Position numbers and translations under genes: made by a program. A DNA stretch of 64,000 nucleotides from Eledone cirrhosa (Eukaryota): assembly GCA_964016885.1 (NCBI GenBank), contig OZ024741.1, positions 251,844,001-251,908,000 on the forward strand, written 5' to 3'. Positions within the stretch are counted from its first letter, which is position 1. Every line of letters starts with the position of its first letter. Below are positions 19,444 through 59,541 of this stretch, in pieces. The notes under the pieces were generated by a model. The model was not told where the DNA came from, made no database searches, and was given only the letters and a program-made list of their open reading frames with translations.

Positions 19444-20840
19444 TCTATAATATAAAGCTGACGGCCGTATGTATGTAACAAACTTTTCGCCAAACGGCTG
19501 GGCCAAAGAGCACCAAATTTGCACCATAGATGTAACTTTTTCCAAGTAAAAAAGTGAGGGTATTTTTGTCTACTGAATTTTGTTAAAAGATTAAAGTTAT
19601 TTAAATATTCATTTCTTTAAAATTTCAAACGTCAACACTTCCGGTTATACAACGTTCCTCACTTTTTCTTATGACGTCGCACAACATTCCCCTCTTTTTC
19701 TTAGTCTGTCTTTTTAGATAGATACATAGCTATAACGTAGCACCCTTATAATATGTCTCTGTATGTCTGCTGTCTGCATTAGATAACGTTTTTCGAAATA
19801 TTTACTTCTGCGTTCACATATTGATTTTTTTTAGTTTCATAAGACCCCGTTACGGGTGAAAGCCTTTGCTTACACTTTAATCTGTTATTTTAATATATAT
19901 ATTCGTGTACAGATATTTTTGCATACACAAAAACAAAAACCTATTTATTTCATTGTTACTGTTCGAGGTTAGAGGACCACAGTCTTTCCAAGATCTGAGA
20001 ACCATCAATGGCCATCAAAGTTCCACTTATCGTTTGGCTTGCCAGACGTGTGGTATGCTACACGACGACAGCCATTGGCACCTCACCCTGAAAGACGCAG
20101 CAACTGCTAAGTCCCTTCTCAGTTGCGAAAAATTTTTGCGATTATGCTGCACAACTGCAATCTCGCCGACCCTCTCGCACTGTGGAACAACCACCGCGAA
20201 TGTCTACCTGAGGACATCTTCCAACTCACACGCAGACACAATCCGAACGTAACATACGATGTCGTTTTCAATGAGGCGCTCATTTGTCTTGAAAACAGTG
20301 TCCTGGAGATTGGTAGTAGGCCTCTAAGTCACTACAGCTTACCTGCTCCTGACAGGAGTCTCCAGAGGTCAACGTCTACAGAGCTTCTCCACGAGACGAG
20401 CTACGAGATAAGTGCTTCTCCCATGGTCAATTGTATGTAGGATGCTCTAGGGTGAGCTCGCCAAACAATCTCTTCATCTTTGCTCCGGAGGGCCGAACAA
20501 AAAATATTGTATATTCTGAGGCTCTAACAATGTAATTTAAATATTTTCTGTTACTTGGAATTTCCATTATGGTTGTACAAAATAATTGTTTGTTAAAAAA
20601 TGTGTTCTCTGTTCAACCTTTATTGTTGTAACTATCAATTTTCTTTAAGGTACTGGTTGCTGAACTAGGGAATCCTAAAAACTATTCAAACCTAACATCA
20701 GAGCACGTTAACCCCCCCCCCCCTTAACCTTGCAGACTTGAGAGGGCGTGCGTTATCTTTGCACTGGAGTGGAGGGAGGATTCCTGAAAAGATAAAATGT
20801 TGGTATACCTAGCCAGGCGCCTGCCGGACGGGCCAGATAG
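19444..20840 (+). mobile_element. Non-autonomous Helitron with internally deleted RepHel remnant
   Basis: 5' TCTATAATATAAAG; 3' GC-rich hairpin GCCTGCCGGACGGGC then ATAG|T; no TSD; RepHel-like peptides inside. Confidence 0.85.
19950..20535 (+). pseudogene. Helitron Rep/PIF1-helicase fragments (frameshifted, central helicase domain deleted)
   Basis: LLLFEVRGPQSFQDLRTINGHQSSTYRLACQTCGMLHDDSHW, then LRKIFAIMLHNCNLADPLALW, then in a third frame (20413-20535) CFSHGQLYVGCSRVSSPNNLFIFAPEGRTKNIVYSEAL*, the typical Helitron helicase C-terminus. Confidence 0.9.
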
Positions 20841-20862
20841 TACTATATATTTTCAACAGTAA

Positions 20863-21831
20863 TCTATATATCTAAAACAGAGAATGTCTGACTCCCTAAA
20901 ATTTGAGAACCACCCAACCGATTTTTTTTCAAACTTTACACATGTAATACTTAATGTCATGTGAGTTTATAGAGCAAAACAAATTTCAAATTAGCAATGC
21001 CCTAGGGACCGCATTAGGCGCCGAACGTCGCGCCCTTATAATATCTGTCTGTATGTCTGGCTGTCAGGATTACAACATTATGACGCTATCTGTATGTGTG
21101 TGTGTATATATGTATATATAGTGTGTGTATATATATATATATATATAGTGTGTAACGTTTTTCGAAATATTTACTTCTGCGTTCACAGATTGATCTTTTT
21201 AGTTTCAGAAGATCCCGTTAAGGGTGAAAGCAGCGATTCTTTGCTTAAACTTTAATCTGTTATTTTAATATATATATATATATAATTATATATTCGTATA
21301 CAGATATTTTTGCATACACAAAAACAAAATATAAACAGCAGCAAAAACAACAACAAAAAAGAGAGGGAACGCAATTACATGCTTTTGAAAAATCGTAATG
21401 GAAAATTATTTGGCTATTCACCGAAGGCGACTTCACTTTTTATTAGGACTTCTGCATCAATTGGTGAACATACGATGAAACATTGAAAGGAGTAAGACCA
21501 CACCACTCTCCACCACTGCAGTCCCACATGCTTACTGCTCTGTAACTATTGCTTTCACTGTACCATAGCACAACAAATACATGTTCGATTTGTCGAATGC
21601 CTTTTTACTTAACCCTATCGTCTTGGCTTTCGTGGGTTGAACATTTTACTCTCAGGCACCCAATTAAGTTAAACCCCTGGTAATCTACGACAATTTTTTT
21701 TTATAAGCACAAAATGTAGACACCAATCCGAGGCCGAGGTATTCCGTACTTCTCTGTACTGTTTCAGAAAGGAGGGATAAACATGCCAATCTATGTTTAG
21801 AATCCTGAGCAATGCCGGGCCATTCTGCTAG
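20863..21831 (+). mobile_element. Second non-autonomous Helitron
   Basis: A|TCTATATATCTAAAA start; CCTGAGCAATGCCGGG hairpin followed by CTAG|T end; inserted at an AT dinucleotide with no TSD. Confidence 0.85.
21201..21251 (+). ncRNA. Type I hammerhead-like motif with variant core CAGAAGA (other copies 19833-19876, 24088-24137)
   Basis: AGTTT-CAGAAGA-tCCCgttaaGGGt-GAAA-GCA(n9)TGC-TT-AAACT: stems I, II and III all pair; core has A at position 4. Confidence 0.5.
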
Positions 21832-22660
21832 TACTATACTATATATTTTCAACAGTAATACTGTACTATATATTTTCAACAGTATACTATACTATATATT
21901 TTCAACAGTAATACTGTACTATATATTTTCAACAGTATACTATACTATATATTTTCAACAGTAATACTATACTGATAGACCCTCATAACCATATATATTC
22001 TGAAACTACATTGCCCAGGGTACTTGGATAAGTATATTTCATTTCAATCAAGGCATTCCCTGGGGGCACAAACTGCCACTGAAAACCCCCACTGAAAATT
22101 TTTTCCCTTCAATTTATATGAAATTTAAACCATAGGTAAATGACAAGATATGATGCCTATTCACAAAAGTTTTGAATTGATATTTTGAAAAAAGTTATTT
22201 ACAAGAAACAAAATAAGAATAAGATATATAATGCAATTTTGATTTGATATATTACAAAAAATGTTTTCCAATTTTTCATGCATTACATTTTATATTGAGT
22301 AATATTGAAATGCAGAGTTTTAGCCATAAATTATATCACTGATTTAAAATCAATCATCATTTTCTTACAAAAAAAATGTGTGAAATGCAGCAAGGCACAG
22401 GTAATTCGGCTATATATATATATATATATATATATATACTCTCAGCTGCTAAATAATAGTGGGAATTGGAAAATCGATAATTTTCCTAGGTTTTCTCCCT
22501 TGATTTGTTTAAAAATCAGAATTAGTCATTTAGTTTACATATTGAAACCCAAAACCCATCCTATTTTTGTCATGTATAATGTTTTTCATGTCTAAAGATA
22601 ATTAATTGTTGCAGGAATGTTACCACTTAAAATAACATTTTGCTGGAGATGATTTGATGA

Positions 22661-22988
22661 TTTCATTTTACGTCCGCTTTTCCCTGCTTGCAAGGGTGGG
22701 ACGGGAACTGATTCTGGCTTGATTTCTACAGCTGGATGCCCTTCCTAACACCAACCTCATTTACAGTGTGGGCTGGGTGCTTTTTTGCCGTGGCACCTCC
22801 ACGACCACTTTACAGTGGAATGATAGGGACCTCAGTCCCTATCATCTCATTTCTACAGCTGAGTAAACTGGAGCAATGTGAAGTAAAGTGTCTTGCTCAA
22901 GGAAACAACACATCATCCGGTCTGAGAATTGAACTCACAACTTTTCGATTGCAAGGCCAATGCTCTAACCACTAAGCCATGTGCTTTC
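22661..22988 (-). mobile_element. SINE family A copy
   Basis: Reverse complement of 18947-19293. Confidence 0.9.
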
Positions 22989-58280: not shown

Positions 58281-58341
58281 ATTTCATTCTGATGATTGAA
58301 ATCAGCTCGTCTGTCTTCGTGAAACCTATGGTAAATGAAAT
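58281..58341 (+). ncRNA. Type I hammerhead ribozyme motif with intact catalytic core (GUA site)
   Basis: ATTTCATT-CTGATGA-(imperfect stem II)-GAAA-CC-tat-GG-TA-AATGAAAT; perfect 8-bp stem I; predicted cleavage after 58333. Confidence 0.75.
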
Positions 58342-58342
58342 A

Positions 58343-58790
58343 ATTATCTTATGTTGTTTATTACATAACTATATATATATATATATATATATTATCTTAT
58401 GTTGTTTATTACATAACTATATAACTATATATATATATATATATTATCTTATGTTGTTTATTACATAACTATATATATATATATATATATATTATCTTAT
58501 GTTGTTTATTACATAACTATATATATATATATATATATATATATTATCTTATGTTGTTTATTACATAACTATATAACTATATATATATATATATATTATC
58601 TTATGTTGTTTATTACATAACTATATATATATATATATATATATTAACTTATGTTGTTTATTACATAACTATATAACTATATATATATATATATATATAT
58701 ATATATATATATATATTATCTTATGTTGTTTATTACATAACTATATATATATATATATATATATATATATATATATATATATATATATAT
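58343..58790. repeat. Eight copies of ATTATCTTATGTTGTTTATTACATAACT, each followed by variable (AT)n
   Basis: Directly visible; begins immediately after the hammerhead stem I. Confidence 0.95.
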
Positions 58791-59416
58791 ACACACACTA
58801 TGTCAACATGTGGCTGAGTGGTTAGCAATCTTGAGGTTGTGAGTTTGATTCCTGGATCGGGCGATGCATTATGTCCTTGAGCAAGACACTATTTCATGTT
58901 GCTCCTTCTACCTGGAGTTGCGACCGATAGATAGTACTAGTAACTGGAAAGACTAACAGAAACATTGTTTCCTCCGTCCGATTTGACGAAAGTCAATCGA
59001 TCCTTTTATATACACTAAATTGATTTAATCAACAGATATAAAAGATATATATTGATTATGTTACTCAACACAGGAAGCTTGATGAACATTATATTCAACT
59101 TGATATATGAAAAATGATTTTTTATATATCCTTTAAATTTGTGTGTGTGTATATATATATATATATATATATATATGTATATATATATACATATATATAT
59201 ATATATATATATATATATATATATATATATATATATATATATATATATATATATGTATATATATATATATATATATGTTGAAAAGGTAACACACTAGAGA
59301 GAGAGATAGTGCGCCATCAATAAAACAGGGAAAAACCACCAGTGTATGGAATTAATTAATTTATCGTATATATATTTATATATATATATATATATATATA
59401 TATATATATATATATG

Positions 59417-59541
59417 GGAAAAGAGTCAGGACCCCGATGTCTGAGCTCCAGCTATTTCGACAGCTAGATCTAGCTAGATCTAGTTTGGATCTAGCTGTCG
59501 AAACGGCTGGAGCTCAGCCGTCGGGGTCCTGACTCTTTTCC
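59417..59541. other. Fold-back hairpin (54-bp arms) containing a hammerhead 3' half
   Basis: 59417-59470 is the near-perfect reverse complement of 59488-59541; the right arm reads CTAGCTGTC-GAAA-CGGCTG-gagct-CAGCCG-TC-GGGGTCCT. Confidence 0.75.

Follow-up and report, generated by a model that had tools for sequence, protein, structure and literature searches.

The stretch of Eledone cirrhosa DNA described here (contig OZ024741.1 of assembly GCA_964016885.1, positions 251,844,001 to 251,908,000 of the forward strand) is 64,000 nt long and is called the window below; positions are counted from its first letter. It contains nine hammerhead ribozyme-like motifs, most of them close to (TA)n tracts. 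It is highly probable that these motifs are the 5'-truncated 3' ends (pseudo-long terminal repeats, pseudo-LTRs) of several families of Penelope-like elements (PLEs), likely of the Hydra clade, and that the insertions came, as seems likely, from a GIY-YIG/reverse transcriptase (RT) protein nicking a TA run on both strands and copying uncut RNA from two fixed internal starts. An earlier note on this DNA had read the motifs as a population of non-autonomous, ribozyme-bearing mobile RNAs, possibly of an under-described system. The system is a known one, that of Hydra-type PLE ends in TA microsatellites, here with new, very abundant families, three of which have non-canonical cores.

Hammerhead-like sequence is present at all nine places named in that note, each of them in a family dispersed through the 3.0-Gb genome, but only the motif at 58289 is canonical. 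The remaining eight are decayed, variant or half hammerheads. An Rfam scan of the window at the gathering score gave no matches. A canonical type I descriptor matched once in the window, at 58289(+); in 60 block-wise dinucleotide shuffles it averaged 0.017 matches, and one shuffle reached 1. One relaxed descriptor matched twice (shuffle mean 0.37, reached in 4 of 100) and another three times (shuffle mean 0.68, reached in 3 of 100). In this comparison with shuffled sequence, which the note had proposed, the motifs are weak when taken singly; the relaxed versions have two or three matches where 0.4-0.7 are expected.

The signal is real because of family membership and not because of single motifs, of which the descriptors find one to three. 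DNA searches of the genome returned dispersed copies of each motif type. The exact pattern of the family called A below has 16,111 genome matches, that of family D 34,092, and a strict pattern of family E 54, whereas the reversed-pattern control gave none in each case. Matches of family D with the whole ribozyme number 3,430. All these counts are of arms, not insertions, and the two family D figures come from patterns of different strictness. The failure of eight motifs in nine to pass the canonical descriptor, the weak relaxed counts and the silence of Rfam are what chance matches in AT-rich repetitive DNA would look like. Nevertheless, the family counts exclude chance, the probability of which is negligible: every site lies in a genome-wide family, the reversed controls are zero, and the same core occurs with different stems, at the same place, across many unrelated families.

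By their genome matches the motifs belong to five or six PLE families, in keeping with the earlier claim of at least four. The copies have a common plan. An inverted arm and a direct arm stand head to head between (TA)n tracts; the inverted arm is truncated at its 5' end, and the 3' ends are fixed at two positions. These positions recur within each family, where they define a tail-bearing and a tail-less end, 65-95 nt from each other and each running straight into (TA)n. Among 40 family A copies taken in order of position, most end +74..76 or +164..165 from the core anchor, and it is precisely at these positions that contigs of the public run X1 pass into TA (147 and 134 contigs). The public runs used (X1, X2, X4, X5 and X6) consist of contigs of unrecorded library type, and their depth was not taken as copy number or expression. 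Eighteen of 24 TA-flanked pairs are of the same family, and 14 of these 18 combine one tail-bearing with one tail-less end. An inverted arm of the same family is found at the 5' end of 20 of 30 D copies and 10 of 40 A copies. Adjacent inverted arms had been noticed at three of the window's copies; they are indeed present, but at five (Table 1). Tail, inverted arm and truncation are described marks of PLEs (Craig et al. 2021, PMC8557442).

The association with TA holds genome-wide. (TA)3 follows within 5 nt at 57 of 68 ends (30 of 38 in family A, 27 of 30 in family D), compared with 2.0-3.9% of positions outside TA runs. These samples were position-ordered and unselected, and two of the 40 A copies had no assignable end. 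New insertions are found in the TA runs of older ends (L312 and L045), and therefore existing runs are targeted. A search of about 1 Mb of loci gave no clean empty site, so that some TA may have been added at insertions.

The 5' ends of the arms do not cluster at the predicted cleavage site. They are positioned 2 nt or less from it in 2 of 120 family D arms, 1 of 63 in A, 0 of 18 in B and 1 of 20 in C, a total of 4 of 221 tail-bearing arms. Because the copies are not truncated at this site, uncut RNA is the likely template. In family D (e.g. L172-L201) truncation is sharply concentrated in loop II: the 5' ends of 79 of 120 arms lie 30-45 nt upstream of the cut site. This hot spot could represent an RT stop or a short transcript. 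Some family D arms also have a partner from another Hydra family (G or F), an inverted arm joined to them head to head, mostly with no TA in between (L057, L059, L065, L075, L078 and L139). Such joins were found in 5 of 25 pattern-selected loci, in none of 30 unselected D copies and, as one weak case, among 40 A copies. Their mixed composition suggests two separate RNA templates per insertion.

No PLE coding frame accompanies the copies in the window, as had been remarked, and tblastn with two PLE proteins gave no match there. Elsewhere in the genome, however, families A and D run into RT and GIY-YIG sequence and family B into GIY-YIG, which bears out the suspected link to Penelope. An RT fragment located beside a family A copy, used as a query, returned 38,649 first-look candidates. 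The 121 that were scored are 93-100% identical, many have open frames of 713 codons, and family A sequence adjoins the open reading frame (ORF) in most of 30 RT loci. One locus (L236) has the full order pseudo-LTR, ORF, pseudo-LTR with a unit of 3,259 bp, and another (L144) has an intact 709-aa family A ORF with YRDD followed by IVY...YIG. The endonuclease, the 3' untranslated region, the ribozyme and TA are continuous in A (L147, L170, L204), B (L133) and D (L235, L245). Both RT and endonuclease of family D are found in L234/L235, and only the end of the endonuclease in family B. The proteins of A and D are about 55% identical, and those of B and A about 42% over the endonuclease.

These continuous copies bear on whether the short ends are instead independent non-autonomous ribozyme RNAs (retrozymes), which would form small circles and seed or target TA runs. 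Short ends are indeed far commoner than long ones (of 34,092 D matches, about 3,430 extend across the ribozyme, the two patterns differing in strictness), the loop II hot spot could mark a short transcript, no partner was found for C and E, and a 2026 preprint derives retrozymes from PLE pseudo-LTRs (bioRxiv 10.64898/2026.07.22.740005). The criterion of that preprint is tandem units with complete hammerheads, of which the window has none; a search limited to the window found no tandem array overlapping a hammerhead core. Furthermore, half of the ribozyme is missing from most D copies, longer copies of the same sequence extend into ORFs, and the inverted arm and tail are PLE marks. Retrozymes are thus very unlikely, and the population that had been proposed turns out to consist of ordinary 5'-truncated PLE ends with coding copies elsewhere.

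The Hydra clade has been defined by a single ORF with RT followed by GIY-YIG, by DKT, RWK, CxCx5C and CxxC/CxH motifs and by the lack of CCHH, and its elements have hammerheads and (TA)n targeting (PMC8557442). In the elements described here, family A, the one in which this region was recovered, has DKT instead of DKG, in the form SDKT. The CxCx5C linker reads CNCRNRADC in A, CNCRNKTDC in B and CNCPDRSSC in D. The endonuclease has no CCHH and a single Cys within the GIY-YIG core, and CxxC and CxH are present around the E and N residues (CDLCAAE...LNKKSEAISACKH in A, CNLCSEE...LNKKDELVTACKH in D). Compared by eye, family A follows Hydra-1_Obim of Octopus bimaculoides motif for motif, an element with a (TA)n preference (PMC8557442, supplement). 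The (TA)n trait is seen here as adjacency, at the 57 of 68 ends given above. The canonical CUGANGA hammerhead, a described trait that is not a basis of the clade, is found in B, B2 and C and not in A, D and E. The protein motifs and the comparison by eye make the Hydra clade the likely home of the elements. A representative protein search gave 793 matches at E<=1e-30, eight of which were looked up and had no names, and an endonuclease tree of five rows had no supported fork. Membership in Neptune was ruled out because CCHH is missing; neither the CCHH of the Neptune, Nematis and Naiad endonucleases nor the N-terminal endonuclease of Naiad was found. A PLE ORF of another clade was encountered at L141:3080-4379 (+). 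It has YVDD and two Cys in the GIY-YIG core, and no BLAST match to the Hydra-type proteins.

The CAGAAGA type of ribozyme core had been singled out in the earlier note; it is indeed unusual, and proves to be the state of the whole of family A, including the copies linked to ORFs. The change U4A is present in 15,964 of the 16,111 matches, and the other 147 have G, C or T there, a spread to be expected of random decay. Among 100 listed copies of the 3,430 complete family D copies, 69 have U3-A8, 30 have C3.A8, one has U3.G8 and none has C3-G8; position 7, where all four bases occur, is the only position that varies freely. Family E has an 8-nt core with an extra base after A6 in all 54 matches. 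In B, B2 and C the cores are canonical at the family level. Families A, D and E retain stems I-III and GAAA, and the predicted hammerhead fold is preserved in the pseudo-LTR. Covariation in family D was uninformative (its score was reached by 208 of 500 shuffles) because the copies are too similar to each other and had been selected with a pattern in which stem II is fixed. A description of family D as lacking the 5' half was tried and abandoned: a CTGANGA pattern had given 60 mixed junctions, and long copies showed YTGANAA and a longer loop. G12 is lost in the window's B and E copies, probably through CpG decay. At one insertion elsewhere (C3:104.137 Mb; L120 and L126) both family B arms have AAAA in place of GAAA, so that G12, the general base, may have been missing from the template RNA already.

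Judged by their sequence, the cores of A (U4A), of E (extra base after A6) and of part of D (C3.A8) are predicted to cut poorly. Single changes in the CUGA turn all gave low activity in a full mutagenesis (PMC9901934). Natural variants with an A6 insertion (A6a) or U4C have low activity, and U3-A8, which is seen in Schistosoma Cercyon PLEs (PMC4209133), keeps some (PMC3088659). Family-wide non-canonical cores were not found in print: the literature consulted, which did not cover Lunse et al. 2017 on PLE hammerhead variants, gave no PLE family in which U4A or C3.A8 is fixed.

The same elements might have variant ribozymes that still cut in vivo, where the element's protein or a dimer partner would rescue U4A, A6a and C3.A8 and cleavage would serve a step other than templating, e.g. 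release of the RNA from a host transcript. This is possible, if somewhat doubtful. An anole PLE hammerhead cuts only with protein (PMC11167929), the natural variants named above retain some activity, the stems and GAAA are kept in A, D and E (95.6% of cells are paired in D), and only position 7 varies freely in D. Against these stand the uniformly low activity of CUGA-turn changes, the occurrence of C3.A8, which breaks the 3-8 pair, in 30 of the 100 listed complete D copies, and the absence of a pile-up of 5' ends at the cut site.

The mechanism that we favor, in which uncut RNA is copied, may be envisaged as follows. The element protein would nick both strands of a TA run, and each nicked strand would prime its own cDNA (complementary DNA), one at the tail-bearing site and the other at the tail-less site. 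Priming would be helped by 2-7 nt of TA-like sequence at the start sites; in the intact element TAAATAT or TAT comes right after them, and these letters could pair with the nicked TA primer. Both cDNAs would usually stop early and be joined 5' to 5', resulting in the inverted structure. Later elements would reuse the TA runs, producing islands such as that at 38,000-39,150. The template would be the uncut element RNA. The tail of the anole PLE arises from two internal RT starts, and that element still inserts in vitro when its ribozyme is mutated (PMC11167929). Self-cleavage is probably not required for insertion here, because the A, E and part of the D cores are predicted to cut poorly.

Several points weigh against this account. 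The loci used for the 5'-end counts were mostly fetched with ribozyme-spanning queries, which favors arms passing the cut site. In family D the compensated U3-A8 (69 of the 100 listed copies) and the free position 7 give the impression that an active core was under selection, at least until recently. The 14 longer regions fetched contained no coding partner of C, E or B2, and among 30 further E loci three had pieces of a Hydra-type ORF, possibly not continuous with E. The elements were assigned to the Hydra clade by motifs and by-eye comparison, not by a tree with references; the N-terminal RWK position has a conservative variant, RWR (LRWR in L236, LCWR in L144), the 3.26 kb unit exceeds the '<3 kb' given for Hydra, and Pfam had no family match for four PLE proteins.

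A more far-reaching proposal is that the RT, a relative of telomerase, lengthens or makes TA runs, priming on the UAU-like letters of the start sites, realigning repeatedly and adding TA units ahead of the element copy, while in the most successful families the hammerhead is a non-cutting landing pad for the protein. As a whole this is improbable, whereas its second half, a non-cutting ribozyme, taken alone is slightly favored. What can be cited for the making of TA are the TA-like start-site letters, pure TA runs of great length at the ends and the 28-nt end that is repeated with TA at 58343-58745. If it occurs, PLEs would be a main source of TA microsatellites in this genome; 13 of the 23 TA islands of the window touch a PLE end.

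Table 1. Copies of PLE pseudo-LTRs in the window. Percentages refer to the matches with the loci named.
Feature	Position	Strand	Details
Family A pseudo-LTR fragment in non-autonomous Helitron-like element	19785..19900	+	decayed core CATAAGA at 19838; 83% to natural copy L236
Family A pseudo-LTR fragment in Helitron-like element	21151..21268	+	core CAGAAGA at 21206 (family-typical), GAAA, tail-less end, then (TA)8
Family A insertion, inverted arm	24043..24089	-	tail end facing TA run; 87% to L236 tail
Family A, direct arm of the same insertion	24086..24160	+	core CAGAAGA at 24093, one stem II base lost; tail-less end, then (TA)10
Family E arm	30305..30388	-	8-nt core CTGAATGA at 30370(-), AAAA for GAAA; tail-less end at (TA)24
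Family E inverted arm	30398..30510	+	tail-bearing, ends at TA
Family B2 (relative of B), single arm	38200..38310	-	CTGATGA at 38286(-), decayed stem II; TA on both sides; 96% to L137
Family D single arm, truncated in loop II	38594..38662	-	site 38597(-); only 3' half: GAAAC, stem III, GUC site
Family B inverted arm	38800..38882	-	tail-less, GAAA kept
Family B direct arm	38877..39145	+	~95-nt tail; CTGATGA at 38949, AAAA for GAAA; then (TA)7
Family C inverted arm	58142..58194	-	tail end facing (TA)7
Family C direct arm	58191..58371	+	complete core CTGATGA 58289-58295, GAAA 58321-58324, predicted cut after 58333
Tandem repeats of the last ~28 nt of family C	58392..58745	+	TA run after each; no ribozyme core
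Family D insertion	59414..59625	+	inverted tail-less arm 59414-~59480 and direct arm with ~75-nt tail; at 59488(+) only 3' half of ribozyme (GAAAC...GUC); flanked by (TA)19 and (TA)16
Family A, tenth copy (L312), runs past window end	63869..64000	+	family D insertion in its TA run; absent from the earlier note

The two copies that had been described as Helitron-borne (19838 and 21206) are confirmed as such; we take the host to be a Helitron from its 3' hairpin and CTAG. This non-autonomous family (18800-21840 of the window; L031-L055) captured a whole family A insertion, the direct arm together with the inverted tail, and spreads it, and 5 of 40 unselected family A copies were scored as Helitron-borne. 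At 58343-58745 the last ~28 nt of family C are repeated about seven times together with TA, either by slippage or by repeated re-priming. Beside TA runs in many places of the loci L001-L325 we saw still other hammerhead families, a dozen or more, which have canonical cores and stems that differ.

The window also contains a 905-codon open frame at 15095-17809 (-), a putative single-exon protocadherin ectodomain. Large tandem arrays are located at 464-13127 (34-bp units over 12.6 kb), 25535-27126 (41-bp x39), 39957-44991 (27-bp x192), 55542-56766 ((TAG)x408) and 61937-63430 (11-bp x136). Elsewhere in the genome there are near-identical segmental duplications (98-100%), several of them 70-170 kb apart (L349-L355, C4:203.9-233.5 Mb; L332-L334, C2:164.3-164.4 Mb).

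Families with tens of thousands of arms, intact ORFs and cores predicted to be crippled occur here in one genome with canonical sister families, which makes a natural experiment on the purpose of the PLE hammerhead. They offer ready substrates with which to find out if PLEs can do without cleavage or carry it out with the help of a protein. A very large repeat class of this genome, with close ties to TA microsatellites, appears to consist of elements of the Hydra clade, which was described on the basis of about 27 families; its biggest families here would escape standard hammerhead descriptors. A curated annotation of O. vulgaris lists 31 recently active PLE families, and ribozymes are not mentioned in its accessible text (PMC13282606).

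The closest known system is the Hydra clade itself (Craig et al. 2021). Both have a single ORF in which RT precedes GIY-YIG, DKT, CxCx5C, insertion in (TA)n and no CCHH, and a type I hammerhead close to the 3' end; the U.U that families A and C have at the foot of stem II is another shared trait. PLEs of this clade that have hammerheads and target (TA)n, one of them a family of Octopus bimaculoides, have already been published (PMC8557442, section 11 and Files S1/S2), so that the system is not an under-described one and the density of motifs is unsurprising. The differences are in the cores and the numbers. The Hydra hammerheads in File S2 all read CTGANGA and often have the U.U, whereas A has CAGAAGA, E has CTGAATGA, and D has UUGANAA or CUGANAA with a loop II of ~40 nt and a stem III of 5-6 bp; the hammerhead listed for Hydra-1_Obim is none of A-E. 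Compared with published Hydra elements, there are tens of thousands of arms here, and the unit is 3.26 kb.

PAc, a Poseidon PLE of Anolis carolinensis (Frangieh et al. 2024, PMC11167929), likewise has two internal RT starts, AT-rich targets cut on both strands and an uncut RNA template. It belongs to a different clade, its starts have no homology to the target, and its tail of 30-40 nt is inside the ORF, whereas the tails described here are 65-95 nt long and in family A are positioned before the start codon, with 2-7 nt of TA-like sequence at the start sites. The minimal hammerheads of metazoan PLEs (Cervera and de la Pena 2014, PMC4209133) resemble B, C and E in their minimal or palindromic stem III, and they too are mostly solo motifs from truncated PLEs; the accessible text of that paper does not mention U4A, the 8-nt core or C3.A8. 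The long stem III of family D is similar to that of fungal and protist PLE motifs (PMC4209133). Non-LTR retrozymes (Cervera and de la Pena 2020; bioRxiv 10.64898/2026.07.22.740005) share the type I hammerhead, the lack of protein in short copies and PLE ancestry. Their units, each with its own complete hammerhead, follow one another head to tail in runs of two or more, whereas the copies described here are truncated arms arranged head to head, with coding masters.

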